In this document: piece by piece, positions 17,401-43,713 of the stretch | Layout of the letters: each line of letters starts with the position of its first letter | How positions within the stretch are numbered: position 1 is the stretch's first letter | Assembly (NCBI GenBank): GCA_001783805.1 | Contig: MFNS01000006.1 | Location: 34,095-98,094, forward strand | Length of the DNA stretch: 64,000 bases | Reading direction: 5' to 3' | From: Candidatus Levybacteria bacterium RIFCSPHIGHO2_01_FULL_40_16 | GTDB taxonomy: Bacteria; Patescibacteriota; Microgenomatia; Levybacterales; UBA12049 | Position numbers and translations under genes: made by a program | The notes under the pieces: generated by a model | What the model was told of the DNA's origin: nothing | The model's database searches: none | What the model saw: only the letters and a program-made list of their open reading frames with translations

Positions 17401-17448
17401 ATCCGGATAAACTTGTTTTTAAGTCGTAGATGTATTAAAATACACCTG

Positions 17449-17872
17449 CTCTAGGAAGAAGATCCGTTACCCCCTCTTTCTTAAAGAAAGAGGGGGAGGA
17501 AAGTCCAGACAGGCGTAAGGACGGGGATGGAGCGTAAGCTCCGACGCGAAAGCGCTAGTGTTTATACTCTTTGCCCGCATATAGAGTATAAAACAAGTTT
17601 TGAATTAACAAAACTTGAGAGTAACAGAGACGAGCGGGAGTGAAACGCGACAATCCTACCTGCTGCAACTTTCGAACGACACGTTTGAGCATCTTTACGC
17701 AAGTGTCAAAGAAAGGCATCCCGATCGAATCGGGACGTATGTGACTAATTATCACAAACGAGATAGATTACGGCATTGCCTCGCTGAAGCTTCAGCGAAA
17801 GCGGGGATAAAACTCGCCTTCGTATAACTTCGGCGAAGTGAAACAGAATCTGGCTTACTTTCTTCCTAGAGC
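17449..17872 (+). ncRNA. rnpB: RNase P RNA (bacterial type A-like)
   Basis: P1 pairing CTAGGAAGAA/TTCTTCCTAG; P4 strands AGGAAAGUCCAGAC and ACAGAAUCUGGCUUA; GNRA loops (GCGAAAGC, CUUCGG); 424 nt with no credible ORF. Confidence 0.7.
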
Positions 17873-17899
17873 ATTTCTAATTGGTATTGCAGAGCCAAG

Positions 17900-22026: not shown

Positions 22027-23157
22027 TTAGTCGAAATAGAGCTCTGGGTTAGCAATGATTTTATTCCATGACATTTTTTCCGGGTGGAAGCAAGCATATG
22101 AGCCGATCATCGCGGCATTATCGGTACACAAACTTTTTTCAGGATAAAAAAGTTTAATTTCCAATTTCAAATTTCCAATTTCAAATTTCAAATGATCGCG
22201 GAGCTTTTGATTGCAAGCGACACCGCCGCCCAAAAGAATTGATTTTACCTTGTATTTTTTCGCTGCCCTGATAGTTTTGCGGACGAGAACTTCAATAATT
22301 GATTTTTGGACGCAGGCGCAAATGTCTGCAATGACAGCTTCTTTAAGTTGGGGTCCTGCCGCCAGTTTCCCTCCCGCCAGTGCTCCTTCCAAGCGTTCAG
22401 TCCGCGCTGTCGGGAGCCCTTCCTCTGGCGTCACCCCTCTTTTTAATTTGTTAACTTCGCGCCAGACTGCTGCTTTAAGACCAGAAAAAGAAAAATCAAA
22501 ATCTTTTGAGCCAATCATCGGCCGTGGGAACGTAAAGCGACTAGCAATGCCACGTTCTGAAAGCTTTTCGATTATTGGACCTGCGGGATAAGGTAGATTT
22601 AAAAGCCTGCCGATTTTGTCAAAAGCTTCCCCTGCCGCATCATCTCGGGTTCCGCCCAGCCACTCAAAGTTATTGTAATCTTTCATTAATAACAAATCAG
22701 TGTGTCCTCCCGAAACTAGTAATGTAATTGCCGGAAATTCAATTTTTGATTTTTGATTTTTGATTTTTGATTTTTCGCTAACGAAGTTAGCGAATATGTG
22801 TCCGAGTAAATGATTTACAGGAATTATGGGTTTTTTCCAAAGATAACCTAAAGTTTTTGCAGTTTCAACTCCAATCAGAAGCGATCCAATGAGTCCCGGG
22901 CCTTCGGTTACAGCAATTGCGTCAATGTCTTTAATTTTTAATTTAGAATTATCAATTGCCTTTTCTACTACCGGAATAATGAATTTCAATTGTTCGCGGG
23001 CTGCGATATCGGGAATAATTCCGCCGGTTTTTGCATGGAAAGTTAAGGATGACGCAACAACATTTGCTAAAACTTTAACGTAATTTTCTTTGGGATTTTT
23101 GGAAACGACAGCGGCTGCGGTTTCATCACAACTGGTTTCAATTGCCAAGATTTTCAT
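22027..23157 (-). CDS. tsaD: tRNA N6-adenosine threonylcarbamoyltransferase TsaD
   Basis: MKILAIETSCDETAAAV, HxxGH metal site, Kae1/TsaD fold; two in-frame heptamer-repeat inserts. Confidence 0.9.
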   Translation of the reverse strand: MKILAIETSCDETAAAVVSKNPKENYVKVLANVVASSLTFHAKTGGIIPDIAAREQLKFIIPVVEKAIDNSKLKIKDIDAIAVTEGPGLIGSLLIGVETAKTLGYLWKKPIIPVNHLLGHIFANFVSEKSKIKNQKSKIEFPAITLLVSGGHTDLLLMKDYNNFEWLGGTRDDAAGEAFDKIGRLLNLPYPAGPIIEKLSERGIASRFTFPRPMIGSKDFDFSFSGLKAAVWREVNKLKRGVTPEEGLPTARTERLEGALAGGKLAAGPQLKEAVIADICACVQKSIIEVLVRKTIRAAKKYKVKSILLGGGVACNQKLRDHLKFEIGNLKLEIKLFYPEKSLCTDNAAMIGSYACFHPEKMSWNKIIANPELYFD

Positions 23158-23620: not shown

Positions 23621-24102
23621 TAATTCACATTAATTAATTTCATGTATTTAGTTGTTGAGTGGTTTTGAATTTTTTTGACTGCATAAATAACTTTGCCCTG
23701 AACTAATTTTGCCTGTCTTCTTTTATGTCTCACATATGGGTCGCCTTGGGTAGTCGCAATTATGTCAGGGCGTATTTCGACCATGAGTTTATCATACAGA
23801 TCATTATTTGTCATGTTTTTAAGCATGATTATATAACTAACACTTTCAAGGGAAGATAAGACTTTCGCGCGGTCTTGCTGGGAATTTATTGGCCGGTGTT
23901 TACCTTTTTCTCTTGCGGCTTTACTGTCATCCTCCAGTAATAAGAAGAGATAGTTGGCATATTTTTTTGATTTTTCCAAAAACTTGATGTGGCCTAAATG
24001 CAATATGTCAAAAAATCCGCCAACAACAACAATTGTTTCGTTTAATTTTCTAATTTTTTTTGCGATTTCGATAGCTTCTTTTATATCTAAGATTTTTTTC
24101 AC
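23620..24102 (-). CDS. cytidylyltransferase-like protein (RfaE domain II / heptose-1-P adenylyltransferase-like)
   Basis: GTG start; GGFFDILHLGHIKFL (HxGH) and KGKHRPI blocks. Confidence 0.5.
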   Translation of the reverse strand: MKKILDIKEAIEIAKKIRKLNETIVVVGGFFDILHLGHIKFLEKSKKYANYLFLLLEDDSKAAREKGKHRPINSQQDRAKVLSSLESVSYIIMLKNMTNNDLYDKLMVEIRPDIIATTQGDPYVRHKRRQAKLVQGKVIYAVKKIQNHSTTKYMKLINVN

Positions 24103-24159
24103 AATTTTTAATTTTCAATTTTTAATTTTCATTGAAAATTTTAAATTTCAAATTTCAAA
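24103..24159. repeat. A/T-only heptamer-like repeats with 8-bp palindrome (AATTTTCA-tt-TGAAAATT) between convergent genes
   Basis: aattttc aattttt aattttc attgaaaatt ttaaatttcaaatttcaaa. Confidence 0.5.
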
Positions 24160-25611
24160 TTAGTTTTCCTTTGTACCCCTAAGAAAAATAGATTGCCAGG
24201 GAGCGTAATTTGAAATAAAGGTCTCCGAGATAATTTTTTTACCATTTTTCATTACTTCCCTTGCGAAAGAGGCTCTTGATCCTTCCGCACTGAAATCTAT
24301 TTGTTTTACTGTTCCCTTTGGCAGGGTTGGATCATCTTGGTATAGATCCGGGGGCGGCGGAACTCGGTTGGTAATTACCGGCTGAGTCAGGGTAACTTCT
24401 CTTCCGTCTTTAGTACCATAAAGAAAAACTGAGAGTCTTTGCTCTTCCAGATCGATTTGAGTTTGTACAAGGATGTAGTTACCGGTATCATTTTTGAATT
24501 TTAAGTCGACGCTCGGGACAAAAACAGTAGCATCCAGTCCTGGCAGACTGTCCTGCTCATAATACCCAACCCGATACGCGTGAGCATGCCTCTCCGTAAT
24601 TGGAACCCCCGCATTGAGAATTGCTCTGAAGAAAGTGGTTGATACTTGACAAATACCTCCTCCATCACCAAGCACTGTTTTGCCATTTTGGATAATATAG
24701 GCTTGTTGGTAGCCTGTAAAGGAAGAAACATCGCCCAAGGCTTTGGCAAAAGAAAATTCTTCATTGGGGGCAATTAGAACTCTATTTATTCTGGATGCGG
24801 CCAGGGTAATGTTGAATATTCTCTGAGGTATTGAATGCTGAAAAAGAGAAGTTCCCGTTCCAATCAATTCTTTTATGCCCAAATTGTTTGCTTTATCCGT
24901 AGTTATTTTAGGCGAAAAAGTTTTGATGGTAACCGGAATAACTATTTCTTGAGTTTTTTGTACTAACAATACCTTTTCAAATTGAGCTCTCAAATCTTGC
25001 TTAACTTTCTCCATATCAACCGCTTTGCCTTCTTCAGACGGTTTGAATGCCAGGACTTTTCCGTTTTGAAAAGTGAAAAGCGCATCAACGGGTTCCTTAT
25101 TCACCTTTTCTATAAATGGGGTCAAGGTTTTATTCAGCATGTCTTCGGAATAGCGGTATGCCGGCTGCAAATTTAATCCATTAAAGTATGCCTGAAAAGC
25201 AATGCTAATATTAGAGAGAAATTCATGGGATTTTCCCAAGCCTATTGCCTGCTGAGCAATGAGCTTTTCATCATAGCCAAACTTCAAATCTTTAGCTGAA
25301 ATTGTCGCTATATTCTCCGAAAGTGAAAATGTAAATTGAGTATTTTCAATAGTCTCGTTTCTCTTAGCAAACAATTCCTCGACTTCCTTTTGAGTAGATC
25401 CTCCTACGTAGATGTTATTAAACGTTATTCCCGGATAAACAACGCCGGCGTTCACCTTTTCATAGATAATAAATGTAAAACTTGCAAATAAAAATGCTGC
25501 CAAGACTGCTCCGGTAATAAACCAAAAGCAGGCTTTCATAATGCGTGTAATAATTTTTTTCCGGATTTTTAATTTTTTAGTTTGCTTCATTTGATATACT
25601 ATAGCTGACAT
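24160..25611 (-). CDS. VanW family protein (membrane-anchored)
   Basis: N-terminal TM; VanW core GDGGGICQVSTTFFRAILNAGVPITERHAH. Confidence 0.65.
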   Translation of the reverse strand: MSAIVYQMKQTKKLKIRKKIITRIMKACFWFITGAVLAAFLFASFTFIIYEKVNAGVVYPGITFNNIYVGGSTQKEVEELFAKRNETIENTQFTFSLSENIATISAKDLKFGYDEKLIAQQAIGLGKSHEFLSNISIAFQAYFNGLNLQPAYRYSEDMLNKTLTPFIEKVNKEPVDALFTFQNGKVLAFKPSEEGKAVDMEKVKQDLRAQFEKVLLVQKTQEIVIPVTIKTFSPKITTDKANNLGIKELIGTGTSLFQHSIPQRIFNITLAASRINRVLIAPNEEFSFAKALGDVSSFTGYQQAYIIQNGKTVLGDGGGICQVSTTFFRAILNAGVPITERHAHAYRVGYYEQDSLPGLDATVFVPSVDLKFKNDTGNYILVQTQIDLEEQRLSVFLYGTKDGREVTLTQPVITNRVPPPPDLYQDDPTLPKGTVKQIDFSAEGSRASFAREVMKNGKKIISETFISNYAPWQSIFLRGTKEN

Positions 25612-25631
25612 ATTATACTAGATATTGCCTT

Positions 25632-27089
25632 ATGGATGAAAATATGATCTTCAAGCCCATTAATACTGTCCCTCAAGAGGCGGACATTCAGCCTGCCCGC
25701 CAGAGCCTTGCTCAGGCAAGTGCAGGCGGGCCTGAGATTCCGCCAAATAATCCAGTTATTGCACCAGTTCCATCTGAATTACAAAGTAGTCCTCCTCCGT
25801 CAATACTATTTAGGATTTTGAAAATTTTATTGGGAATAGCGATTGTTCTTGGCATTATTTTCTTCGTCTACAATATAATTTTGCCTAAGTTTTTTCCTTC
25901 CAAAATCAATCAGGCAACATTGACATATTGGGGATTGTTCGAAGATGCTTCAGTAATCGCTCCGATTATTGTAGATTTTGAAAAGGAACATCCGAATATT
26001 AAAATAGAGTATACCAAGCAAGACCTGGATCAATATAGGGATAAATTGGTAACCCGTTCTAATAATGGTAATGGTCCGGATATCTTTAGGTTCCACAATA
26101 CTTGGGTTCCTCAGCTTTCAGAGCTACTTTTGCCTCTTCCTCAGAGCGTTATCTCAAAAGAAGATTTTTCTAAAAATTATTATCCGGTCGTTAAGACAGA
26201 TCTCATAAAAAATGGGGCTATTTACGGTGTGCCTTTGCAAATAGACACCCTGAACCTTTTTATAAATAGAGATCTTTTTCAAGCAGCCGGTCTCAAGCCG
26301 CCTGGCACCTGGATAGAATTCGTAAAATACGCGAGACAACTGACTGTCAAGGATGGAAATAACAATATAAAAACAGCCGGAGCCGCAATGGGAACATTCA
26401 GCAATATAACTCATGCTCCCAATATAATCTCAATGCTTTTTGTCCAGAATGGCGTGAATCTCAATGATATATCCTCCAATCTTCCGGCTGCAGCTGAGGC
26501 CTTAAATTTTTACTCCTCCTTTGCCTTGCCCGCAGAGAACGTCTGGGATGATACCCTAGATGAATCAATTAAACTCTTTGCTTCGGGCTCCCTAGCCATG
26601 TATTTTGGTTATTCGGGAGATTTTTTTACAATAAAATCCATGAATCCAAACCTTTCATTTGACATTTATTCGGTACCGAGTTTGCCGGGGCAAAATGCAA
26701 CGATTGCCAGTTACTGGGCTGAGGGAGCATCTGTCAAAAGTAAACATCAAAAGGAAGCACTTCTTTTCCTGCAATATCTTACCCGAAAAGAAACAGCGCA
26801 AAAATTATTCACAGAAGAGTCAAAAACGAGAAATTTCGGTGAGCCATATGCCAGAGTTGATTTAGCAGATAGCTTGAAGGATTCCATTGCTTATCCTTTT
26901 GTCGGAGCAGCGCCCTCTGCGGTTTCTTCTTTCTTTGTTGACGGGACGTTTGACAACGGATTAAATTCCCAGATGAATAACAATTTAAGCAGTGCGGTAG
27001 ATTCTATGCTGAAAGGAACATCCCCGCAAACAGCTGCCGAAACTCTTTCTGCGGGAGTTTCGACAGTCCTAAAGCAATATGCCCAATAA
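25632..27089 (+). CDS. extracellular solute-binding protein (ABC transporter SBP family 1-like), membrane-anchored
   Basis: Pro-rich N-terminus, TM, SBP_bac_1-like fold; no adjacent permease or ATPase. Confidence 0.55.
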   Translation: MDENMIFKPINTVPQEADIQPARQSLAQASAGGPEIPPNNPVIAPVPSELQSSPPPSILFRILKILLGIAIVLGIIFFVYNIILPKFFPSKINQATLTYWGLFEDASVIAPIIVDFEKEHPNIKIEYTKQDLDQYRDKLVTRSNNGNGPDIFRFHNTWVPQLSELLLPLPQSVISKEDFSKNYYPVVKTDLIKNGAIYGVPLQIDTLNLFINRDLFQAAGLKPPGTWIEFVKYARQLTVKDGNNNIKTAGAAMGTFSNITHAPNIISMLFVQNGVNLNDISSNLPAAAEALNFYSSFALPAENVWDDTLDESIKLFASGSLAMYFGYSGDFFTIKSMNPNLSFDIYSVPSLPGQNATIASYWAEGASVKSKHQKEALLFLQYLTRKETAQKLFTEESKTRNFGEPYARVDLADSLKDSIAYPFVGAAPSAVSSFFVDGTFDNGLNSQMNNNLSSAVDSMLKGTSPQTAAETLSAGVSTVLKQYAQ

Positions 27090-28113
27090 CCTAATTGTCT
27101 GTGGAGGAACATTTGACCATTTTCACAAGGGACACGAAGCATTTTTGAATTATGTTTTTTCTGTTGGCAAAAAATATCTTGTTGGAATAACCAGCGATAA
27201 CTACGTAAAAAATTCAAAATTTAGAATTCAGAATCCAGAATTTATTGAACCTTTTGAAAAAAGAAAAGAATCAGTTTTGGAGTTTGTAAAAAAAGAAAAA
27301 GCTTTAAATAAAGTTGAGATCATTAAAATAGAGGATTTGTTTGGGCCCACTCTTTCTAAAGATCTAGTGATTGATGCAATTGTTGTGTCACAGGATTCAA
27401 AAGATGGAGCAGACATCATTAATCAAAAAAGAAAAGAGCTCAAGTTGGCTGCGCTTAAGGTCTTTGTTGTTCCTCCTGTTAATTCTGAGGACGGAAAGCT
27501 TATTTCGTCCGCGAGAATTAGGAACGGCGAAATAAATAGAGCAGGCAGACTCTATGTAAAACCGGTATGGCTTCAAAAAGATTTAATTCTCCCAAAAGAT
27601 TTAAGAGAAGAGTTTCATAAACCGTTTGGTGGATTATTTAAAGCTATTACAGATTCGAATATTCTCAAAAAGTCTTTGATAATTGCAGTCGGTGACGAAA
27701 CATCCAGAAATCTTAATAAGTTAGCTGTCAATCAAAGGCTCTCTGTGGTAGATTTTAAGGTTGCGCGAAAGAAAAAATTTTCCTCATTCCTAGATCTTGG
27801 TTTCTCAGGAAATGAGAAAGTTGTATTTGCAAATAATCCTGCAGGCCACATGACGCATGATCTTTTCTCAAAAATCTTAGATATTTTTAAATTCAGTTTT
27901 AGCAAGAGGATAATCTTAAAAATAGCAGGAGAAGAAGACCTTGCGGTTTTACCCTTAATCTTGGCAGCGCCTCTGGACACTGTCATTTATTATGGTCAGC
28001 CCCCACTTCGCTCTGCGAGCTACGCGGGGCAGGCAGGCATTATAAAAGTGGTAGTTACAGAACAAAGTAAAGAGCGCGCTTATGATCTAGCCTCAAGACT
28101 AAAGCCTATATAA
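27079..28113 (+). CDS. archaeal-type phosphopantetheine adenylyltransferase fused to DUF359-like (GTP-dependent dephospho-CoA kinase-like) domain
   Basis: N-terminus CGGTFDHFHKGH (cytidylyltransferase HxGH); C-terminal half resembles DUF359 (IAVGDETSRNL...VVDFK). Confidence 0.45.
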   Translation: MPNNLIVCGGTFDHFHKGHEAFLNYVFSVGKKYLVGITSDNYVKNSKFRIQNPEFIEPFEKRKESVLEFVKKEKALNKVEIIKIEDLFGPTLSKDLVIDAIVVSQDSKDGADIINQKRKELKLAALKVFVVPPVNSEDGKLISSARIRNGEINRAGRLYVKPVWLQKDLILPKDLREEFHKPFGGLFKAITDSNILKKSLIIAVGDETSRNLNKLAVNQRLSVVDFKVARKKKFSSFLDLGFSGNEKVVFANNPAGHMTHDLFSKILDIFKFSFSKRIILKIAGEEDLAVLPLILAAPLDTVIYYGQPPLRSASYAGQAGIIKVVVTEQSKERAYDLASRLKPI

Positions 28114-28129
28114 CTAATACTAGAGGTTA

Positions 28130-28158
28130 TTGACAAATATCCCCTAATATTATATATT
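28130..28158 (+). promoter_or_regulatory. candidate greA promoter (-35 TTGACA, 17 nt, -10 TATATT)
   Basis: Consensus hexamers upstream of leader hairpin. Confidence 0.5.
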
Positions 28159-28171
28159 TTTCATGCTAACA

Positions 28172-28205
28172 ATCCCTCGACACTAAAAATTTGAGGGATT
28201 TTTTA
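28172..28205 (+). terminator. intrinsic-terminator-like hairpin in greA 5' leader (ATCCCTC...GAGGGAT + T6)
   Basis: 7-bp stem, 13-nt loop, TTTTTT; ends 14 nt before greA ATG. Confidence 0.5.
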
Positions 28206-28218
28206 AGTATTAAAGGCT

Positions 28219-28689
28219 ATGGATACAAAAAAGATTTACTTAACAAAAGAAGGATTGGCAGAGCTCAAAAAAGAGTACGATGAGATTGTCAATGTAAAAA
28301 GACCGAATGTTTTGGCACGCGTTACTCAAGCCAGAAACATGGGTGATTTGTCGGAAAATGCGGAATATGTTGCCTCCCGCGAAGAACTGACTTTCATAGA
28401 CGGAAGAATAGACGAGTTGGAGATTATTCTTAAGCAAGCAGTGATTATAAGGGATAATGTTAAGGCGGCAAATCATGCGGTAAAGCTAGGATCTACGGTT
28501 ACATTGACCGTTAATGGCAAAAAAGAAATTTTCACAGTTGTTGGAGAGTGGGAAGCGGATCCGGAAAACAAGAAAATCTCGCATGAATCACCGCTTGGGA
28601 AAATGCTAATTGGTAAGAAAGTGGGAGATAAAGTTCAGGTTGAAGCTCCTGCCGGCAAAATCACTTACGCTGTCATCAGCGTAAAATAG
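28219..28689 (+). CDS. greA: transcription elongation factor GreA
   Basis: N-terminal coiled coil with acidic tip (DLSENAEY) and FKBP-like C-terminal domain. Confidence 0.85.
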   Translation: MDTKKIYLTKEGLAELKKEYDEIVNVKRPNVLARVTQARNMGDLSENAEYVASREELTFIDGRIDELEIILKQAVIIRDNVKAANHAVKLGSTVTLTVNGKKEIFTVVGEWEADPENKKISHESPLGKMLIGKKVGDKVQVEAPAGKITYAVISVK

Positions 28690-28690
28690 C

Positions 28691-29338
28691 CTAATTAAAT
28701 AGGGATTTAAGTATAGAAAAAGCCTTATTTACATCTTTATCCTCAAGTATCAAAGTGAATTCGGAAGCAGTGGAAACAATCTCAATAATATTTACTCCTT
28801 CCCAAGCAAGGGACTTTAAAAAAAAGTAGAATATTCCAGGAGTAACTACCGATTGATCAGGTAAATTTATTGTAATTGAAGACAGATTGTTGAATTCAGA
28901 AATTGTTTTTTCATGCTTAAGAATCTCTTTTATCTGACTTGCTATGTCATTGCTTGCGATTATTGTCGATTCAGATATTCCCTTTGAGAATGTTAAAAAG
29001 AATTTTTGTCCTCCGTTGAAGCTTAAAATTTGAGAGTATTTAGTTATAAGAGCTTCAGAGTTTATAAGGTTTATCTCGAAAAGATTCGACCTGATTATAA
29101 TAGTTGGTTTAGTTTTAAAAATATTTTTATATTTGGATTGTGGCTTCAAGTTTTTCTGCAGCCTATTAAGAGCCATAATCACGGATGATATATTAATTTC
29201 TTTAAGTAGCATTTCTTCGAGCTCAGGTTTGATGTATCGGGCGAGAGAGGAATTATTAATAAATCCTTTAGACATAGCCTCCGTAAGGTATCTGGATCTT
29301 TTAATTATGGTATTCGTAGCTTCAGGAACAGTAATCAT
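28691..29338 (-). CDS. hypothetical protein (ACT-like domains?)
   Basis: 215-aa ORF with alternating beta-alpha pattern; weak call. Confidence 0.3.
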   Translation of the reverse strand: MITVPEATNTIIKRSRYLTEAMSKGFINNSSLARYIKPELEEMLLKEINISSVIMALNRLQKNLKPQSKYKNIFKTKPTIIIRSNLFEINLINSEALITKYSQILSFNGGQKFFLTFSKGISESTIIASNDIASQIKEILKHEKTISEFNNLSSITINLPDQSVVTPGIFYFFLKSLAWEGVNIIEIVSTASEFTLILEDKDVNKAFSILKSLFN

Positions 29339-29442
29339 GTTTAAATTTTAACATAATATATAGTTTTTGTGAATATTTTATTAAAATTTGACACAGTAAT
29401 TAACCCTATTATAATTGTTTTGAAAGTTAATTTAATGATATA

Positions 29443-30375
29443 ATGTTAGAAGTGGAAAATACTGCGATGAAAAATGAAGGAAGAAACCCGCATCCTAAAA
29501 GAGATGATTTTCTTGAAAAAAGAATAAGAGGCCTAATAAGTGATCAGGCCTATTCGACGGAAATGGGCAGACGAATGTTTGCAGACGCTCGAAGACTTCA
29601 GGTAGATTATTTTAAAGATAGCTTATTGCATATAGATAATCCTAATTTAATCCACAAAAGCACCCAAAAATTACTGCACGATTTAGCAATAACTACGAAT
29701 GCTCATATAGTTGAAGGAGAAGAAATATTGAAGAAATTGCCTAAAGGCAGACCTATTTTTACAGAAACGAATCATTATAGTGGTTATAAATTAACGGCTA
29801 TAGATCAGTCAGAACTAGGCGTTAATTACCCTGAGATAGATGAGATTTTTCCATTCCCATTTTTCTATGCGCCTATGATTCCAGTAGCCGATGTGTTGGG
29901 GAATTATCTGTACGATGCGCATCTAGTGCTACCGGGAGAACTTAGGAAAATTCAAGAAGGAGCAGGTCTTTTAATTGTTCCGGAAGATGATGGCTCTTTT
30001 AATTCAATAAAGAGAGAAACAGAAAAAATGATTTCTCGACATCCTAATTCCTTGATAGTGATTTTTCCAGAAGGTGGCACATCCGGAAAAAGAAATATGG
30101 GTGGGCCATATGATATGGATCATTTTCATGGAGGATCGTTGGCTATTGCCGAAGCTTTAGGCGTTCCAGTTATTCCTGTTTATCAACGTTTTAATCCATA
30201 CAGTGGATTTGAAATAGGAATTTTAGAACCCGTTGATTTTAGTCATGCACCCAAGACCGAAGATTTGGGAGTAAAAAAAGCTTATTTTGCTGAATTAGCC
30301 GAAACTACCAGAGCAAAAATGCAGCAACATCTTAGTCAGAGAAAGCAATCTGCGGACGTTCCCTCCAATTCCTGA
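29443..30375 (+). CDS. hypothetical protein, acyltransferase-like (FPEGG motif)
   Basis: LIVIFPEGGTSGKRN resembles PlsC-family motif III; HxxxxD motif not clear. Confidence 0.3.
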   Translation: MLEVENTAMKNEGRNPHPKRDDFLEKRIRGLISDQAYSTEMGRRMFADARRLQVDYFKDSLLHIDNPNLIHKSTQKLLHDLAITTNAHIVEGEEILKKLPKGRPIFTETNHYSGYKLTAIDQSELGVNYPEIDEIFPFPFFYAPMIPVADVLGNYLYDAHLVLPGELRKIQEGAGLLIVPEDDGSFNSIKRETEKMISRHPNSLIVIFPEGGTSGKRNMGGPYDMDHFHGGSLAIAEALGVPVIPVYQRFNPYSGFEIGILEPVDFSHAPKTEDLGVKKAYFAELAETTRAKMQQHLSQRKQSADVPSNS

Positions 30376-30387
30376 TCTACTGCAATT

Positions 30388-31938
30388 TTGAGTGACAGCC
30401 TGTATAATATTGATATGTTTTGGGTGGATAGCGTAGCTGCAGAATTAAAAAAGAGAAAATTATCTCTGGAGTGGGTAGATGATATGAAAACCCCATCCGG
30501 CAGAATCCACGTTGGCGCTCTACGCGGTGTAGTAGTCCATGATTTGGTTTTCAAAGCATTAAAGGAGTTGGGTGTTAAGACAAAATACACTTATATTTTT
30601 GACAATCACGATCCAATGGACTCTCTGCCCGTATATCTTCAAAAAGAAAAATTTGAAAAATATCTGGGAATGCCGCTTTTTAAAATCCCTTCTCCAGCTG
30701 CTGGATTCAGCGACTATGCCCAGTATTATGCAAAAGAATTTATGGAAGTTTTTAATAAAATCGGCTGCCATCCTGAAATTTTATGGTCAACGGATTTATA
30801 TAAAAGCGGAAAAATGAACCCCCTGATAAAAGAATGTTTAGATGAGGCTTCCGAAATAAGAAAAATTTATGAAGATCTTTACAAGAAAAAAATTGACAAA
30901 AAATGGTATCCTTTTCAGCCGTATTGTCCAAATTGCAGTAAGGTTTCGACGACAAAAGTTTATAACTGGGATGGGGAAAAAGTTTCATTTACATGCGAAA
31001 TAGACGCTGTTGTCTGGACAAAAGGATGCGGATTTAAGGGGAAAATGTCACCTTTTAGTAATGAAAAAGGAATTGCAGGCAAGCTTTCCTGGAAAGTGGA
31101 GTGGGCTGCGAAATGGAAAGTTTTAGGCATAACCGTTGAAGGAGCAGGCGAAGATCATATGAGCAAGGGCGGATCGCATGATTTGGCAAGCCTTATCTGC
31201 GAAAGAGTGATTAATTATCCTGTTCCGTACCCTTTGCCTTATGCGTTTTTTTTAATAGGAGGCAGAAAGATGTCTTCTTCGAAAGGCCGCGGGTCGTCCG
31301 CTCCTGAAATGCTTGAAATTTTACCGCCGGAAATCCTGCGCTTCTTAATGGTAAAAACAAAAGTCAGTCAACAGATTAATTTTGATCCCAGCGAAGACAC
31401 TGTACCCAAACTTTTTGATGATTATCAAAAAGCAGCCGAGGCATATTTTGAAAAGAAAGATGAGAACCTAGCAAGGATTTTTAAATTATCGCAAATAGAT
31501 AAAGTAAAAAAACCACCGAGCATTAGATTCTCCGTTTTGGCACAATGGGTGCAAATGCCCAACATGGAAAAAGAAATAAAGAAGGAAAGTCTTGAGGAAT
31601 GGGAGTCTTATGCAAAAATTTGGGTTGAAAAATATGCTCCAAACGAAATTAAATTTTCTATCCAAGAAAAAATACCAGAGGCTTCTAAAAAACTTTCTCA
31701 AAAACAAAAAGAATATTTGCTTAAAGTCTCCTCATTTTTAGATAATAATTGGGACGCAGAGGAATTTCAAAAGAAACTTTATGAATGGGCAAAGGAGATA
31801 AGCTTATCCCCTACAGAAGCATTCCAAGCATTATATGTGTCGCTTATTGGTAAAGATTACGGACCAAAAGCAGCATGGCTAATTTTAAAACATAAAGATT
31901 TTGTAAAAAAACGGTTTCTTGACGCCGCTAATTCATGA
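30388..31938 (+). CDS. lysK: lysine--tRNA ligase, class I (archaeal type)
   Basis: Class I signatures: HVGALRG (HIGH-like) and KMSSSKG (KMSKS). Confidence 0.85.
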   Translation: MSDSLYNIDMFWVDSVAAELKKRKLSLEWVDDMKTPSGRIHVGALRGVVVHDLVFKALKELGVKTKYTYIFDNHDPMDSLPVYLQKEKFEKYLGMPLFKIPSPAAGFSDYAQYYAKEFMEVFNKIGCHPEILWSTDLYKSGKMNPLIKECLDEASEIRKIYEDLYKKKIDKKWYPFQPYCPNCSKVSTTKVYNWDGEKVSFTCEIDAVVWTKGCGFKGKMSPFSNEKGIAGKLSWKVEWAAKWKVLGITVEGAGEDHMSKGGSHDLASLICERVINYPVPYPLPYAFFLIGGRKMSSSKGRGSSAPEMLEILPPEILRFLMVKTKVSQQINFDPSEDTVPKLFDDYQKAAEAYFEKKDENLARIFKLSQIDKVKKPPSIRFSVLAQWVQMPNMEKEIKKESLEEWESYAKIWVEKYAPNEIKFSIQEKIPEASKKLSQKQKEYLLKVSSFLDNNWDAEEFQKKLYEWAKEISLSPTEAFQALYVSLIGKDYGPKAAWLILKHKDFVKKRFLDAANS

Positions 31939-32549
31939 AAAAGCTGCTTGTTGCTACGAGAAATGTTGGAAAATTAAAAGAAATTTCTAATTTTCTTTCA
32001 GACTTATCACTTAAAATTGTTTCACTTGATGATGTTGGGATTATTAAAGATATTGAAGAGAATGGAAAAACTTATGAAGAGAATTCTCAAAAGAAAGCCT
32101 TATTTTTTGCTAAGATTTCCAAATTGCCAACAATTGCGGATGATGGCGGAATAGAAATTTCAGCATTAGGCGGCGCGCCAGGAATAAAAAGCAAAAGATG
32201 GTTGGGAAAAGACTCAACAGATCAGGATATCATCAATCACATGACAAAAGTTGCAAAAGAATTACCCGACGACATTAAGGAAGCAAAGTTTAAAACCGTG
32301 ATCAGTTTAGCACTGCCAAATGGCAAAGTTTGGAGCGTTAACGGAGAAGTCAAGGGGATTATTGCCCAAAAACCATATTTAAGAGCGCTCAAGGGCTACC
32401 CTTATCGGTCTTTTTTCTATTTACCCAAAATAAAAAAGTATTACCATGAAGATCAATTGACCCAGGAGGAGGAAAAAGAATATAATCATAGATATAAGGC
32501 AGTTCAAAAATTAAAACCAATCCTTAGGAATGTATTAAGTATTATGTAG
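31935..32549 (+). CDS. rdgB: non-canonical purine NTP pyrophosphatase (RdgB/HAM1)
   Basis: MKKLLVATRNVGKLKE and SALGGAPGIKSKRW motifs. Confidence 0.8.
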   Translation: MKKLLVATRNVGKLKEISNFLSDLSLKIVSLDDVGIIKDIEENGKTYEENSQKKALFFAKISKLPTIADDGGIEISALGGAPGIKSKRWLGKDSTDQDIINHMTKVAKELPDDIKEAKFKTVISLALPNGKVWSVNGEVKGIIAQKPYLRALKGYPYRSFFYLPKIKKYYHEDQLTQEEEKEYNHRYKAVQKLKPILRNVLSIM

Positions 32550-32561
32550 CAAGTATTAAGC

Positions 32562-33857
32562 ATGATAGATTTAAACTTTTTAAGAAATAATCCGCAATTA
32601 ATTCAAAAGGCAGCGCTTGATAAAAATATTGACATTAACATTAATCATATTTTGGAAATAGATAAAAAGTACAAAGAATTGTCAATTTCCGTTCAGAAAC
32701 TCCGGGAGGAAAGGAATGTGCTAACGGAAAAAATTAAAAGAGATCCCAAGCAATTTGATAGAAAAGGCGCACAGAGCTTAAAGCAAAAATTAGAGAAAGA
32801 AGAAAAAGCACTTTCTGCAGTTTGGGAAGAATTAAAAATAGAATTACTTAAAATTCCAAATGTCCCAGCAGTAAATACGCCCATTGGTCCCAATAGTAAA
32901 TTCGATAAAGAAATTCGTAGGTGGGGAAAAATACCAAAATTTGATTTTCCAATAAAAAATCATATAGAAATTGGAAAGAATTTAGATATCTTAGATTTTG
33001 TTGCTGGGGCTAAAGTTTCCGGTTTTCGCGGTTATTATTTAAAAAACGAGGGGGCTTTATTACATTGGGCAGTTCTAAATTTTGCCTTTGCGAAAATGAT
33101 CTCACATGGATTTACCCCCATGGTTCCTCCGACCTTAATTCACGAATTCGTTTTGGTGGGAAGCGGTCATTTTCCATTTGGCAAACGAGATATTTATCAG
33201 ATTGCCAATCCCGGGAAATTAGAAAGCGGTGAGGAAATTAAAAACCCTATTTATTTAGGTGGAACTTCCGAACCTGCACTTCTGGCTTATTTTGCAGATA
33301 AAATTTTAACAGAAAAAGAATTACCTATTAAGATTTGTGCCCTTACCCAATGTTATCGGTCTGAGGTTGGGGATTACGGTAAAGATGTTAAAGGCTTATA
33401 TCGTATACACGAATTTACTAAAGTTGAACAAGTCGTAATTTGCAGGAATGATTTGAAAGAGTCAGAAAAACTACACCAGGAAATGCAGTCTATTTCGGAA
33501 GAGATTTTGCAAGAATTAGATCTTTCTTATCATGTTGTGCAAAATTCAACCGGAGATATGGGTGCAGGTAAATATAAAATGTTTGATATTGAAACTTGGA
33601 TGCCTGCACGAAATAATTACGGAGAAACTCATTCAAATTCTAATTTAACTGATTGGCAAGCACGCAGACTTAATATGAAATTTAAAGATCGAAAAGGAAT
33701 TGTTAATTATTGTTATACTTTAAACAATACAGTTATTGCTTCTCCAAGAATATTGATTGCAATCTTGGAAAATTATCAAAAGGCCGACGGAAGTGTTTTA
33801 ATTCCAAAAATTTTACAAAAATATTTAAACATAGAAAAAATAACTCCAAGTAAATAA
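32562..33857 (+). CDS. serS: serine--tRNA ligase
   Basis: N-terminal coiled coil; class II motifs (FRSEVG, GDYGKD). Confidence 0.9.
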   Translation: MIDLNFLRNNPQLIQKAALDKNIDININHILEIDKKYKELSISVQKLREERNVLTEKIKRDPKQFDRKGAQSLKQKLEKEEKALSAVWEELKIELLKIPNVPAVNTPIGPNSKFDKEIRRWGKIPKFDFPIKNHIEIGKNLDILDFVAGAKVSGFRGYYLKNEGALLHWAVLNFAFAKMISHGFTPMVPPTLIHEFVLVGSGHFPFGKRDIYQIANPGKLESGEEIKNPIYLGGTSEPALLAYFADKILTEKELPIKICALTQCYRSEVGDYGKDVKGLYRIHEFTKVEQVVICRNDLKESEKLHQEMQSISEEILQELDLSYHVVQNSTGDMGAGKYKMFDIETWMPARNNYGETHSNSNLTDWQARRLNMKFKDRKGIVNYCYTLNNTVIASPRILIAILENYQKADGSVLIPKILQKYLNIEKITPSK

Positions 33858-33858
33858 A

Positions 33859-33879
33859 TTTTCAATTTTTAATTGAAAA
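33859..33879. terminator. palindrome TTTTCAATT-ttt-AATTGAAAA just after serS stop
   Basis: Perfect 9-bp inverted repeat 2 nt after TAA. Confidence 0.4.
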
Positions 33880-34020
33880 ATGTTATTTTTTTGCCATCAT
33901 TTTTTTTGCTTGATTAACGCCCCAAACATTTATTTTTGAAGCAGAGCATTTTACTTGACAAATAAAAAAAAATTACTCAGGATAATAATTAGTATTTATA
34001 AAAAAGGAGGTGAATTCACA

Positions 34021-34071
34021 ATGGCAAGAAAAAAAGCAAAGAGAAAGAAGAGAAAGAAGAGAAAGAAGTAA
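34021..34071 (+). CDS. 16-codon poly-Lys/Arg small ORF (MARKKAKRKKRKKRKK) with strong SD; leader peptide or tiny basic protein
   Basis: AAAAAGGAGGTG 7 nt upstream of ATG; followed by terminator hairpin and then secA. Confidence 0.35.
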   Translation: MARKKAKRKKRKKRKK

Positions 34072-34112
34072 TTGGTAAGCAATTTGGAGTATTACCAATT
34101 GATCAGTTGGTA

Positions 34113-34150
34113 TCCCCTCTTTCTTAAAGAAAGAGGGGATTTTCTTTTTG
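34113..34150 (+). terminator. intrinsic-terminator-like hairpin (CCCCTCTTTC-ttaaa-GAAAGAGGGG + T-rich) 19 nt before secA ATG
   Basis: 10-bp perfect stem plus ATTTTCTTTTTG; 25-nt core identical to rnpB P3 hairpin (17471-17495). Confidence 0.55.
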
Positions 34151-34168
34151 TTGTGATAAAATAAGTAT

Positions 34169-36832
34169 ATGTTTAATTTCATTGGTAAAATTTTTGATTC
34201 TAACGAAAAAGAAATAAATAAATTAAAACCAATTGTTTCGGAGACTAATTCATTTGAAGAAAAATTTAAAAAATTAAAGGACAAAGACTTTCCTTTAAAA
34301 ACAAAAGAATTTAAGGAGAGAGTAAGGGACGGAGAATCTTTGGATCTCTTGTTACCCGAAGCATTTGCAATCGTTCGCGAGGCATCGAGAAGATCTATCG
34401 GGCAGCGGCATTATGATGTTCAACTAATGGCAGGAATAACACTGGCGAGCGGAAAAATTGCAGAACAAAAAACAGGAGAGGGAAAAACCCTCTCCTCAGT
34501 TCCGGCATTATATCTACATAGTCTAACTGGCAAAGGTACTCATTTGGTTACCGTCAATGATTATCTGGCCCGCCGTGATGCGGGATGGATGGGTCCGATA
34601 TTTAATCTTCTTGGAATAACGGTTTCTTCAATTATCAATGATACATCTTTTATCTTTGATCCAAATTTTGTCAATAAAGACGCGCAAGATCCCAGACTTT
34701 CTCACTTAAGACCAATTACCCGAAAAGAAGCTTACGGGGCAGATGTTACTTATGGAATAAATTCGGAATTTGGTTTTGATTATCTTCGAGATAATATGGC
34801 TCAATCGATAGAGGAAACAGTGCAGCGGGGATATTATTATGCGATTGTTGATGAAGTTGACTCAGTTTTGATCGACGAAGCGCGAACTCCACATATAATT
34901 TCTGCTCCGGACGAATCTCCAACGCAAAAATATTATGAATATGCAAAGTTGGTTGATAACTTAAATCCGGACATAGATTATAAAATTGACGAAAAATTAA
35001 GAACTGCCCATCTGACAGATCATGGTATCGGAAAAATTGAAAAACTTTATGGAATTAATAATATTTATGAAAAAGATTTTAATACTGTTTATCATTTGGA
35101 AGCGGCATTGAAAGCCCGGACATTATTCAAAAAAGAAAAAGATTATATCGTGAAAGATAATCAAGTCATTCTGGTTGATGAATTTACCGGGCGGCTCATG
35201 ATAGGCAGAAGACTTTCCGAAGGATTGCATCAGGCAATAGAAGCAAAAGAAAATGTTTCGATACAACGGGAATCAAAGACAATGGCAACGGTATCTTTGC
35301 AAAATTATTTTAGAATGTATGAAAAATTAGCAGGAATGACGGGAACGGCTGTTACGGAAGCACGCGAATTTCATAAAATCTATAATCTTTCGGTTGTTGT
35401 AATTCCCACAAATAAATTAATGATTCGATGCGATCATCAGGATTTAGTTTATAAAACCGGACGGGCTAAATTATCTGCGGTTGCCAACGAAATTGAAAAA
35501 ACTCACAAAACCGGACAACCTATTTTAGTTGGTACAACATCAATAGACAAAAATGAATTGATATCGGAACTTTTAAGGCGTCGCGGAATTAAGCATGAGA
35601 TTTTGAATGCTAAAAATCACGAACAGGAAGCAAGAATAATTGCTATGGCCGGAGAAAAAGGCGCTGTAACTGTGGCAACCAATATGGCAGGCCGGGGTGT
35701 GGATATTATTTTGGGCGGAGAAACACCTTCTGCAGGTGAGAATTCAGGTTTATTTAAAAAATGGCAAAAAGAACATGATGAAGTTGTGGGGCTTGGCGGA
35801 TTATATGTAATTGGTACCGAAAGACATGAGTCCCGAAGAATAGATAATCAGTTGCGGGGAAGATCGGGTCGTCAGGGAGACCCGGGAGCATCCCGATTCT
35901 TTGTTGCGTTGGATGATGAAATAATGAGGCTTTTTGGCGGAGATACAATATCGGGAGTCATGACACGATTTAATATGCCTGAAGATGTTCCGTTACAGCA
36001 CATGATTGTTTCCAGGGCAATTGAGCAAGCGCAGACAAAAGTTGAAGGATTTAATTTTGATATTAGGAAACATCTGGTTGATTATGATGATGTCCTAAAT
36101 AAGCAAAGGGAAATAATTTACAAAAGACGAAGAGTAGTTTTGGAAAATAAAGAATCTCTGGAAAAAGAAATAATGGAAAAAATCGATACGTCTTTAGCAA
36201 CTATTGTTAATATTCATACAGCTCAAGTGGGCGATGATAAACCTATTGATGAAAAAATAATTGATGATTTTACTACAATACTTCCTTTCGATGAATCTTC
36301 CAAAAAGCAATTAATAAAACAATTAGAAGTAGCAGTGGGTATAGAGCAGAAAATAACCTTTTTGACCAGCATTGCTCGCGATATTTATAATCAGCGGAAA
36401 AAACAATTGGGAGAAGAGATGATGAAGCAAATTGAAAGATATGTGATGTTATCGGTTAGCGATACGCTTTGGATGGATCATTTGGATGCGGTTGAAAATC
36501 TAAGGGGGGGAATTGGGCTTCGGGGCTATGGGCAAAGAGATCCGCTGGTTGAGTACAAGAATGAAGCTTATGCGATGTTTGAACAGTTAATTAATGCAAT
36601 AGATGATGAAATCGTGCATAGAATTTACAGAATTCAGATACAGCAGGCTCCGCAAATGCATCAACACGTAAGAGAACAGGCAGCCGGTTCAGCAGTTGGC
36701 ATTTCTGAAACTTCAATTAATAATAAAAAATCCACAACAAGTAATCCCGTAGATAAAAAAAAGATTGGGCGCAATGATCCTTGTTATTGCGGATCGGGAA
36801 AAAAATACAAAAAATGCCACTACCCTAATTAG
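34169..36832 (+). CDS. secA: preprotein translocase ATPase SecA
   Basis: DEAD motor, PPXD, C-terminal zinc-binding CYCGSGKKYKKCH. Confidence 0.95.
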   Translation: MFNFIGKIFDSNEKEINKLKPIVSETNSFEEKFKKLKDKDFPLKTKEFKERVRDGESLDLLLPEAFAIVREASRRSIGQRHYDVQLMAGITLASGKIAEQKTGEGKTLSSVPALYLHSLTGKGTHLVTVNDYLARRDAGWMGPIFNLLGITVSSIINDTSFIFDPNFVNKDAQDPRLSHLRPITRKEAYGADVTYGINSEFGFDYLRDNMAQSIEETVQRGYYYAIVDEVDSVLIDEARTPHIISAPDESPTQKYYEYAKLVDNLNPDIDYKIDEKLRTAHLTDHGIGKIEKLYGINNIYEKDFNTVYHLEAALKARTLFKKEKDYIVKDNQVILVDEFTGRLMIGRRLSEGLHQAIEAKENVSIQRESKTMATVSLQNYFRMYEKLAGMTGTAVTEAREFHKIYNLSVVVIPTNKLMIRCDHQDLVYKTGRAKLSAVANEIEKTHKTGQPILVGTTSIDKNELISELLRRRGIKHEILNAKNHEQEARIIAMAGEKGAVTVATNMAGRGVDIILGGETPSAGENSGLFKKWQKEHDEVVGLGGLYVIGTERHESRRIDNQLRGRSGRQGDPGASRFFVALDDEIMRLFGGDTISGVMTRFNMPEDVPLQHMIVSRAIEQAQTKVEGFNFDIRKHLVDYDDVLNKQREIIYKRRRVVLENKESLEKEIMEKIDTSLATIVNIHTAQVGDDKPIDEKIIDDFTTILPFDESSKKQLIKQLEVAVGIEQKITFLTSIARDIYNQRKKQLGEEMMKQIERYVMLSVSDTLWMDHLDAVENLRGGIGLRGYGQRDPLVEYKNEAYAMFEQLINAIDDEIVHRIYRIQIQQAPQMHQHVREQAAGSAVGISETSINNKKSTTSNPVDKKKIGRNDPCYCGSGKKYKKCHYPN

Positions 36833-37215
36833 TCTTCGATTTTGAGGACTTCTTTAACCCTATCAACAATTCCCTCCAGCTTTATATCCGATTTTACCAA
36901 ATAGTAAGCAGGTTGATTCCTGAGAACAGAATTAATTACATAGCTGGAATTTGGATTTACATTAGTAAGAATAATAACCGGGACTGTTCTTCCCCATTCA
37001 TCATGCCTTAGCTTTTGAAGCATGATCATTCCATCCATTTTTGGCATGAGAATGTCCAAAAGGATAAGATCAGGACGTTCCTTCAAAGAGATGGCCAGTC
37101 CTTGTTCTCCGTCAGTTGCGGTAAGAGTTGTAAACTCCTGATTTGTAAGGGCTTGCGAAATAGCGTCTAACATGGCTTCTTCGTCCTCAATTATTAAGAT
37201 TTTTTTGTTGTCCAT
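36829..37215 (-). CDS. response regulator, receiver domain only (CheY-like)
   Basis: ILIIEDEE, ILLDILMP (phospho-Asp), SSYVINS (Thr/Ser), K near C-terminus; AGGAGG SD before ATG at 37215. Confidence 0.75.
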   Translation of the reverse strand: MDNKKILIIEDEEAMLDAISQALTNQEFTTLTATDGEQGLAISLKERPDLILLDILMPKMDGMIMLQKLRHDEWGRTVPVIILTNVNPNSSYVINSVLRNQPAYYLVKSDIKLEGIVDRVKEVLKIED

Positions 37216-37257
37216 TGCCTCCTTATTGTAAACAAGCTCAGGGACATTTGCAACACT

Positions 37258-37323
37258 TAAGCGGGCAGGCCCGCCTGCCATCGCTACCAGCCCGGACTAG
37301 CCCAGGCATGGCAAGGCAGACGC
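37258..37323 (-). other. GC-rich structured island (about 66 nt) between histidine kinase stop and response-regulator start
   Basis: gcgggcaggcccgcctgcc... with alternative overlapping stems; about 65-70% GC in a roughly 35% GC genome. Confidence 0.4.
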
Positions 37324-38064
37324 TCAGGCATTAGCGGGCAGGGAAATGGAAAACGTTGTACCCGTGTTCTCTTCGGACTTAAAATTAATATTCGCCCGTA
37401 GTTTCTTTAAAATTAGCCTGACCAGATACAAGCTAAAACCCATATCTTTAAAATTAACAGAATCTGCCAATATTTTTGACCTTTTTTCTTTGGGGATTCC
37501 ATAGCCGTTATCTTTTATTTCAACTAGCAATCTCTTGTTTAAAAAATCTGCTTTAATATCAATATTTCCGTTTTCCGGGGTATATTTGACTGCGTTTTCA
37601 ATAAGACTTTGAAAAGCAATGCTTAAGAGCTTTGAATCTGTCTGAATTGAGACTTCCTGTTCTGCAGGATAAACCTCCTGTAAATGAAGTTTACGCCTTT
37701 CAATTCTAAATTGTAACTTTCGGATAATTCTTCCGATTAAATCTTTTATGTCAACCCTTTCGATTTTGACAGTGAGATTGTTAGATTGTAACTGCAAAAG
37801 GACAATTAAAGACTCAATAGTCTCGTTCAATTTTTCGCTGGCATTGTAAATTTCCGTAAAATATTTTTCTTGCTTATCATTGAGATTTCCAACTGATTTA
37901 TCAGACAATAGTTCTATATACCATTTGATAATAGAAATTGGAGATCTGAATCTATGCGCCATGACATGAAAAAACTCAATTTTATCCTTCTCTTCCCTAG
38001 ATAATATAAGAAAGAAAACTAACGTTATTAATACTAGGACTAAGAATAATGTAAAAACCGGCAT
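37324..38064 (-). CDS. sensor histidine kinase (TM + HisKA + HATPase_c)
   Basis: H-box MAHRFRSPISII, N-box ENAVKYT, G-boxes DNGYGIP / GTTFSISLP. Confidence 0.75.
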   Translation of the reverse strand: MPVFTLFLVLVLITLVFFLILSREEKDKIEFFHVMAHRFRSPISIIKWYIELLSDKSVGNLNDKQEKYFTEIYNASEKLNETIESLIVLLQLQSNNLTVKIERVDIKDLIGRIIRKLQFRIERRKLHLQEVYPAEQEVSIQTDSKLLSIAFQSLIENAVKYTPENGNIDIKADFLNKRLLVEIKDNGYGIPKEKRSKILADSVNFKDMGFSLYLVRLILKKLRANINFKSEENTGTTFSISLPANA

Positions 38065-38114
38065 ATTTTCACTATACTATATTTACGGATAAATGTGTAA
38101 AATAAATATAAATA

Positions 38115-38150
38115 GGATAAATCCAGCACCGAATCGGTGCTGGATAAAAC
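38115..38150. repeat. hairpin element family B copy 1 (ATCCAGCACC-gaatc-GGTGCTGGAT) in HK / RlpA-like divergent intergenic
   Basis: Perfect 10-bp inverted repeat flanked by GGATAA ... AAAAC; degenerate copy at 46562..46594. Confidence 0.55.
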
Positions 38151-38154
38151 TGCC

Positions 38155-39024: not shown

Positions 39025-39029
39025 AAGCT

Positions 39030-39595: not shown

Positions 39596-39628
39596 AATCT
39601 CTTTTTCGATTGGTGAATAAAGCTTGTA

Positions 39629-40521: not shown

Positions 40522-40524
40522 AGT

Positions 40525-41529: not shown

Positions 41530-41577
41530 CATTTGCCAAAAACCGCATTTTGTGCAATACTTTGAGTAGATAAAGCT

Positions 41578-42063: not shown

Positions 42064-42082
42064 TCCTAATAAAACCTCTAAT

Positions 42083-43706: not shown

Positions 43707-43713
43707 AATATGT

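Follow-up and report, generated by a model that had tools for sequence, protein, structure and literature searches.

A 25-nucleotide hairpin common to helix P3 of the RNase P RNA and to a predicted terminator upstream of secA in a Candidatus Levybacteria genome

The stretch of 64,000 nucleotides analysed in this study (hereafter the window) comes from contig MFNS01000006.1 of Candidatus Levybacteria bacterium RIFCSPHIGHO2_01_FULL_40_16 and carries both rnpB, the gene of the RNase P RNA, and secA. The P3 helix of the RNase P RNA was found to be built from a 25-mer, CCCCTCTTTCTTAAAGAAAGAGGGG, that recurs without a mismatch just upstream of secA, where it is predicted to form the stem-loop of an intrinsic terminator. 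The terminator version of the hairpin is common to several lineages of Levybacteria, whereas the P3 version is confined to the lineage of the window. It is considered reasonably probable that the shared hairpin arose when the terminator stem-loop was copied once, recently and ectopically, into P3.

Results

The 25-mer is present at 17471-17495, inside rnpB (copy 1), and at 34114-34138, before secA (copy 2). The two sites are 16.6 kb apart and are its only occurrences in the window, and no third site was found in the 64 kb when up to 3 mismatches were allowed. A repeat finder extended the match to the left to 27 of 28 bases (TAcCCCC at one copy vs TAtCCCC at the other), and the identity did not reach past the hairpin base on either side, with flanks that are unrelated apart from the left TA. 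The window contains 21 perfect hairpins with a stem of at least 8 bp, and both copies lie within the top three of these by strength. Agreement of two hairpins at 15 independent positions, considered over 210 pairs, has a rough p of ~5e-7, and no site with up to 3 mismatches appeared in any of 100 dinucleotide-preserving shuffles; chance as the source of the shared 25-mer is negligible. No twins of other rnpB segments were found in the window. Moreover, the P3 copy is not an assembly artefact, because 10 contigs of the same population from separate assembly records, including MFOJ01000008.1 of GCA_001782335.1, carry an identical rnpB 5' region with the P3 copy in it. A first-pass annotation of this DNA had described an identical 25-nt hairpin pair and suggested a mobile or duplicated module. 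The identity, the duplication, the coordinates of copy 1 and the location of copy 2 just upstream of secA all hold, but copy 2 lies at 34114-34138 and not at 34115-34139, and it ends 30 nt rather than 29 nt before the secA ATG (34169).

The gene that contains copy 1 extends from 17451 to 17873 on the + strand and is predicted to encode a divergent bacterial class-A RNase P RNA of the Candidatus Levybacteria type. The Rfam model RF00010 (RNaseP_bact_a) was matched from position 1 to 367 of 367 with 44.8 bits and an E-value of 1.7e-12, which is under the gathering score of 100. At gathering thresholds, Rfam reported tRNA-Pro only and no RNase P in the window, and rnpB surfaced with an E-value threshold. 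The RNA has both P4 strands, GGAAAGUCC and ACAGAAUCUGGCUUA, as well as the P1 pairing. The P4 signature of class A, GGAAAGUCC ... ACAGAAnCnGGCUUA, appears as GAGGAAAGUCCAGAC directly after P3 (from 17496) and as ACAGAAUCUGGCUUAC near the 3' end, and the P1 strand CUAGGAAGAAG pairs with the 3' end UUUCUUCCUAG. The P4 strands and the P1 pairing are invariant across 13 aligned Levybacteria rnpB genes, and rnpB adjoins an HU gene in the relatives too, in the same position. The hexamer TAAAAT (17436-17441, + strand), read from the sequence ~7 nt before the rnpB 5' end, is -10-like and may belong to the rnpB promoter; a similar hexamer stands at the same place in relatives. In addition, the window rnpB has a hairpin insertion of ~64 nt near its 3' end (roughly 17772-17840), which was seen otherwise in L167 (GCA_016186645.1) only; loci of relatives are cited here by L numbers. 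Other Levybacteria rnpB genes have insertions of their own at other peripheral sites.

Copy 1 and a closing C-G pair together make up the P3 helix (17470-17496, + strand), which has an 11-bp stem and a 5-nt loop. This hairpin was aligned to P3 of RF00010, between P1/P2 and GAGGAAAGUCC, with a single A as J2/3, and the minimum-energy fold of the whole 423-nt RNA retained both P1 and the P3 hairpin (z = -9). The assignment of copy 1 to P3 made in the first-pass annotation was thereby confirmed. The P3 copy is not a terminator, because the stem is followed by GAGGAAAGUCC and not by a U-run. Furthermore, the window P3 folds at -17.2 kcal/mol, as compared with -8 to -11 kcal/mol for the P3 hairpins of 12 relatives under the same folding, and a stability as high as this would be expected of a transplanted terminator stem.

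The rnpB genes of relatives were located via the HU gene just upstream. This procedure gave 16 distinct rnpB sequences including that of the window, and 13 of them (the window and 12 others) were aligned and P3-folded. The aligned genes are 80-92% identical to that of the window outside P3. Within P3, the comparison with related organisms that the first-pass annotation had proposed as a check showed that all 15 of the other distinct genes have a P3 sequence unrelated to that of the window, held between invariant flanks (CCGUUA on the 5' side and (G)AGGAAAGUCCAGAC on the 3' side). The length of P3 ranges from 15 to ~65 nt. The forms found in relatives include CTCCGCCtttGGCGGAG, GTCCGACataatGTCGGAC, GTCGCCttaGGCGAC, GTCCTGATttaaATCGGGAC, CTGCTCTCAattaaaTGAGGGTAG, CAGTGCCCAataataTGGGTATTG and CTCCCCT...AGGGGAG, and longer forms were found in L167 (35 nt) and in L130 and L160 (~60-65 nt). 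The segment is a hairpin in all 13 folded genes, with unrelated sequences, and four different, unrelated P3 hairpins were found among contigs that encode an identical HU protein. The closest rnpB, that of L167, is 91.7% identical to the window gene outside P3 and is the one relative with the 64-nt insertion described above, and the P3 version of the window is missing even there. In two genomes in which both loci lie on the same contig, P3 also differs from the genome's own terminator hairpin between serS and secA; these are ERZ27247879 k141_3149756 (P3 locus L149, terminator locus L144) and Ga0213870_1000031 (P3 locus L160, terminator locus L147). No twins of the P3 or terminator hairpins of relatives were found in ~150 fetched loci. 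P3 in Levybacteria behaves as a hypervariable, replaceable stem-loop cassette.

A reverse transcriptase gene (RVT_1) was observed directly upstream of the HU-rnpB region in two of the relatives, at 59-1433 of L162 and at 102-1145 of L163. In L162, a bAvd-like gene lies beside RVT_1, and this pair is typical of diversity-generating retroelements.

Copy 2 is located in the spacer between serS (32562-33857) and secA. It forms part of an intrinsic-terminator-like site at 34112-34150 on the + strand, which consists of a 13-pair stem-loop (34112-34140) with six G-C pairs, followed by TTTCTTTTTG. This site ranked first in a scan of 19 kb (25000-44000), and the top rank together with the stem and its TTTCTTTTTG tail bears out the earlier description of copy 2 as a terminator-type hairpin before secA. 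The site lies ~40 nt past the stop codon of a micro-open reading frame (micro-ORF) on the same strand, and copy 2 is predicted to be the intrinsic terminator that closes this micro-ORF unit.

The terminator site is conserved in relatives. The exact 25-mer has one match among the GTDB representative genomes, in L001 (MFPH01, Candidatus Levybacteria RIFCSPLOWO2_12_FULL_37_14), and the context is the same there, with serS, the micro-ORF, the hairpin and secA in this order. Between TTGACA and the secA ATG, the L001 spacer matches that of the window almost throughout, apart from one 31-nt insertion, and it is far more conserved than the adjacent 3' end of serS. With L079 and L063, the 25-mer was found at the orthologous serS-secA site in three contigs, which represent two further lineages. 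Metagenomes were scanned for the stem with any loop of 3-7 nt. Among the matches listed, the stem is widespread in unrelated organisms, where its loops are diverse and it frequently forms a terminator, the TTAAA loop accompanies this stem in Levybacteria only, at the secA site (L063, L079), and the TTAAA-loop hairpin never adjoins GGAAAGTCC. No 25-mer was found in viral contigs. Every contig that encodes a SecA homolog with 81-88% full-length identity retains a Shine-Dalgarno (SD) sequence, a Lys/Arg ORF of 11-16 codons, a second conserved hairpin (hairpin 1, described below), the terminator and an extended -10 element 6-11 nt before secA. Three types of terminator stem were distinguished: CCCCTCTTTC/GAAAGAGGGG in the window, L001/L079 and L063; ACCCCTCATC/GATGAGGGGT in L144/145 and L168/169; and CCCGCACCA/TGGTGCGGG in L146 and L147/148. 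In the consensus fold, six terminator pairs show compensatory double changes, and the hairpin and its T-tract are kept in the relatives. The SecA N-termini of the L001, L079 and L063 lineages are 88-91% identical to that of the window, and in a rough tree of SecA N-termini these lineages do not form a clade together with it. Since its carriers form no clade and have diverged to this extent, the stem type of the window is old relative to the window species.

The terminator site is the last element of an unannotated conserved unit (33955-34150) between serS and secA, which was also observed in L001, L063, L079, L144-L148, L168 and L169. On the + strand, the unit starts with a promoter-like region at 33955-33986, which comprises TTGACA (33955-33960) and GATAAT (33981-33986) with an unusually long spacer of 20 nt; this region is nearly base-for-base conserved in relatives and presumably acts as the promoter of the unit. 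A strong SD, GGAGGTG (34006-34012, + strand), precedes the polybasic micro-ORF of 16 codons (34021-34071, + strand; MARKKAKRKKRKKRKK); strong SDs are few in the window. Hairpin 1, AATTGGTAAGC...TTACCAATT (34070-34100, + strand), is a predicted fold between the stop codon of the micro-ORF and the terminator. Its sequence hardly varies among 7 lineages, in which a single pair shows a compensatory change from G-C to A-U, and it occurs once in the window. The 3' segment of the unit, TAATTGGTAAGCTATTTGGAGCATTACCAATTGATCAGTTGGTA, is likewise nearly invariant, and the non-coding part of the unit is more conserved than the adjoining genes. The peptides encoded by the micro-ORFs are MARKKAKRKKRKKRKK, MAKKKKGKKKKKKK, MAKKKKKKKKKK, MAAKKKAKKAKKAKKK, MAKKKKRRKKR and MAKKKKRKKKR. 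The unit could yield either a small RNA or a tiny polybasic, perhaps ribosome-associated, peptide comparable to bS22/bL37 of other phyla. The serS-secA spacer could be assigned to no Rfam family. With an E-value threshold, sub-threshold matches to PyrR (25 bits), the pyrG leader (23 bits) and miRNA hairpins were obtained and set aside, as they resemble the spacer in architecture only. An antiterminator formed from the purine-rich micro-ORF RNA and the pyrimidine-rich arm of the terminator was also rejected, because it is impossible in relatives with other terminator stems.

The secA gene itself (34169-36832, + strand) is an ORF of 887 aa, and its homologs contain the SecA Pfam domains and are 72-89% identical within Levybacteria. 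It has no SD. An extended -10-like element, TGaTAAAAT (34154-34162, + strand), lies 6 nt before its ATG and 13 nt downstream of the terminator stem-loop, and it is the putative secA promoter; the secA genes of relatives have TGaTAAAAT, TGaTAGAAT or TGgTAAAAT 6-11 nt before the ATG. An SD-like motif was found in 6 of the 41 long ORFs of the window. An extended -10 (TGnTAnnnT) that ends 6-7 nt before the ATG was found at several unit-heading genes, namely 5188+, 11354-, 12082+, 17900-, 28691- and secA, and a plain -10 at the same distance in a few more genes, such as 30415+ and 55338+. Leaderless mRNAs look common in this genome, to judge from these motifs, and the secA mRNA is probably leaderless and made from its own promoter. 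The hairpin would therefore terminate the upstream micro-ORF unit and not occupy a secA leader. The first-pass term, a leader terminator of secA, was accordingly abandoned in favour of a terminator of the micro-ORF unit, given the conserved TGnTAAAAT 6 nt before the secA ATG.

Two further repeat-like features were noted in the window. A pair of hairpins at 38116-38150 and 46560-46594 (TAAATCCAGCACCGAATCGGTGCTGGATAAAAC vs TAAATCCAGCACCTGATTGGTGACGGATAAAAC) is 85% identical, each member is found a short distance before an ORF on the + strand (38155 and 46628, respectively), and the two may be a shared operator or a hairpin repeat of low copy number. Short tandem motifs that are rich in AT and heptamer-like (AATTTCA/AATTTTT) occur in several intergenic regions, for example at 22150-22190, 24090-24160 and 55519-55576.

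Discussion

The terminator version of the hairpin is probably the older one, because it is common to several lineages and the P3 version is confined to that of the window. In the explanation favoured here, the older element would be the intrinsic terminator of the small conserved unit between serS and secA, where it would halt the micro-ORF unit just before the promoter of secA and would also insulate this leaderless promoter. In the window lineage only, P3 would have been overwritten by a copy of the terminator stem-loop minus its U-tract. The likely route would be microhomology-mediated template switching or a short gene-conversion tract, since the left side is TA-(C/T)-CCCC and the right end GGGG at each of the two sites. 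P3 apparently needs no more than a stable hairpin, which would explain why the copy was tolerated, and the copy would now serve as a structural helix. We infer this direction and mechanism from the arrangement of the sequences. The first-pass annotation had reasoned that relatives with an unrelated P3 and without a copy before secA would make the match a recent coincidence rather than a repeat family. The P3 sequences of the relatives are indeed unrelated, but some relatives do carry the copy before secA, and this combination points to a recent, lineage-specific transfer from the terminator to P3 and not to a family that was co-opted twice.

Several points weigh against this explanation. The count of copies in the source genome covers the 64 kb of the window, and more copies may be present elsewhere; likewise, the absence of further copies from metagenomes holds among the matches listed. 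The set of P3 sequences leaves out the lineages that share the CCCCTCTTTC terminator (MFPH01, L063), and MFPH01 has one exact copy of the 25-mer in an assembly from which rnpB might be absent. No trace of copying was found at the two sites beyond a microhomology of 2-4 nt. Moreover, selection could also account for the identity of all 25 positions in a helix that evolves fast, and the termination and transcription start sites are predictions.

The first-pass annotation had favoured a mobile or duplicated hairpin module, and a palindromic repeat family of the REP or MITE kind, dispersed and perhaps mobile, with more copies outside the window and two of them co-opted, is the rival that comes closest to that proposal. 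It would account for two exact copies 16.6 kb apart, the similar hairpins at 38116-38150 and 46560-46594 indicate that low-copy hairpin repeats exist here, and the window covers ~64 kb of a genome that is probably near 1 Mb. However, the available data hold no further copies of the kind that such a family predicts. The window has no third copy even at 3 mismatches, the identity ends at the stem base without a longer element, terminal repeats or a target duplication, and the exact 25-mer occurs once across the GTDB representative genomes, at the orthologous secA site. In addition, the TTAAA-loop version was seen at the secA site only among the metagenome matches listed, and not at all in viral contigs, and the P3 and terminator hairpins of relatives recur nowhere else in the ~150 fetched loci. 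A repeat family is therefore considered unlikely, and the idea of mobility was not sustained: the window has two copies, those in other organisms occupy the orthologous serS-secA site, and the identity is confined to the hairpin. Selection that keeps the two hairpins identical, through a common factor (for example the RNase P protein or another hairpin-binding protein) or through a near-palindromic DNA operator shared by rnpB and the secA promoter region, is rather less likely still. The complete identity in spite of the very fast evolution of P3 in this clade would agree with it, as would the position of the palindrome centre ~43 bp upstream of the predicted secA start. Nevertheless, P3 differs from the genome's own terminator in the two genomes that were read at both loci, the compensatory changes in the terminator preserve the RNA structure and not a sequence to be recognized in DNA or by a protein, and a partner that recognizes a specific sequence is hard to reconcile with a P3 that varies from 15 to ~65 nt between close relatives. 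No candidate for such a factor was identified.

Independent convergence on the same stable hairpin with a C-rich and a G-rich arm is the least probable of the rivals, and we regard it as highly improbable. The CCCCTCTTTC/GAAAGAGGGG stem was found in more than 118 unrelated metagenome contigs among the matches listed, with many loops and often in terminators, and the Rfam consensus of P3 is also C-rich on its 5' side and G-rich on its 3' side. Convergence would nonetheless have had to reproduce the stem length, all ten stem positions and the 5-nt loop together, at the ~5e-7 per window and 0 of 100 shuffles given above. Most P3 hairpins of relatives lack the C-rich polypyrimidine character, and the TTAAA loop was joined to this stem only in Levybacteria at the secA site, again among the matches listed. 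Another alternative concerns the role of copy 2: the micro-ORF and the hairpin might constitute a leader-peptide attenuator or a SecM-like sensor, with a regulated terminator in the secA leader. A micro-ORF with a strong SD is placed ~40 nt upstream of the terminator and directly before secA in 7 of 7 lineages, UUACCAA could pair with either of two UUGGUA segments, as read from the sequence, and there is a weak Rfam resemblance to PyrR and pyrG leaders, which is owed to the hairpin-plus-terminator architecture. Against such a role, neither the single-sequence nor the consensus folds gave a structure that competes with the terminator stem, which is self-contained. The peptide has 11-16 residues of Lys, Arg, Ala and Gly only, is variable in length and shows neither an arrest motif nor a signal peptide. 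Furthermore, secA lacks an SD and is preceded, at 6 nt from its ATG, by a conserved extended -10 of its own, like several unit-heading genes. Regulated termination in a secA leader is thus very unlikely. The single copying event from terminator to P3 remains the explanation preferred here.

It may also be asked whether the window represents a more general process, in which P3 turns over by wholesale cassette replacement, with hairpins of the same genome (terminators included) as donors, and not by stepwise compensatory substitution. This generalization is speculative and is judged improbable at present; under it, the window would be the one case caught early enough for the donor to stay recognisable.

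To our knowledge, a P3 helix that is an exact copy of another genomic hairpin has not been reported. The window RNA resembles other class-A RNase P RNAs (RF00010) in its P1/P2, its single-nucleotide J2/3, its P3 hairpin and GAGGAAAGUCC as the 5' strand of P4, and P3 is a peripheral, species-variable helix in this class. It differs in its score of 44.8 bits against a gathering score of 100, in its lineage-specific insertions and in a P3 that exactly copies a hairpin used elsewhere in the genome. A literature search for P3/terminator identity or for repeats in P3 yielded nothing beyond the divergence of RNase P RNAs in the candidate phyla radiation (CPR) and a reference to cyanobacterial STRR repeats. 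It has been described that P3 stacks coaxially on P2, with a J2/3 rule (PMC1874661). According to the relevant passages of Lui et al. (2021, PMC8172020), CPR RNase P RNAs fall below covariance-model thresholds and have extended or missing helices. The window rnpB is likewise sub-threshold; those passages do not mention the identity of a helix with another genomic hairpin.

The nearest precedent for a genomic repeat sequence within RNase P RNA is provided by the STRR repeats. These are multi-copy tandem heptamer repeats dispersed through the genome. In heterocyst-forming cyanobacteria, they have been found within the gene of the RNase P RNA (Vioque 1997, Nucleic Acids Res 25:3471, as cited in PMC2858038), and, as far as that citation goes, the two cases have in common that a sequence found elsewhere in the genome is tolerated within a peripheral helix of RNase P RNA. 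In contrast to STRR, the case described here involves one 25-nt hairpin that recurs at one other site, and the donor is a terminator predicted to be functional.

Copy 2 shares with intrinsic (Rho-independent) terminators a G+C-rich base, a 13-pair stem, a short loop, a T-rich tail and a position after a stop codon. Nothing in copy 2 itself is unusual, and what differs is its placement 13 nt before the -10 of the next gene. The REP/BIME sequences, the Rickettsia palindromic elements and the Correia elements form hairpins, occupy several loci and sometimes reside inside functional RNA or protein genes. Each of these families comprises tens to hundreds of copies, whose ends are characteristic. 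In contrast, two copies of the window hairpin were found, with identity limited to the stem-loop and no sign of mobility. SecM, a monitor peptide that is secreted, carries both a signal sequence and an arrest motif, and neither of these is present in the micro-ORF peptide of the window.

Conclusions

In conclusion, these findings leave the current understanding of RNase P and of termination unchanged. They indicate that the rnpB of Levybacteria escapes the Rfam gathering threshold, that P3 in this clade apparently tolerates any stable hairpin, and that the hairpin next to secA belongs to a conserved, unannotated micro-ORF unit. If the favoured explanation is right, the window offers a concrete case, with a visible donor, in which a peripheral helix of an essential ribozyme was replaced in one step by an unrelated functional hairpin of the same genome. 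Such a case bears on the turnover of the variable helices of RNase P RNA and possibly on that of rRNA expansion segments. If cassette replacement were the rule, 'hairpin transplantation' would count among the mechanisms by which helices turn over in the structured RNAs of streamlined genomes.

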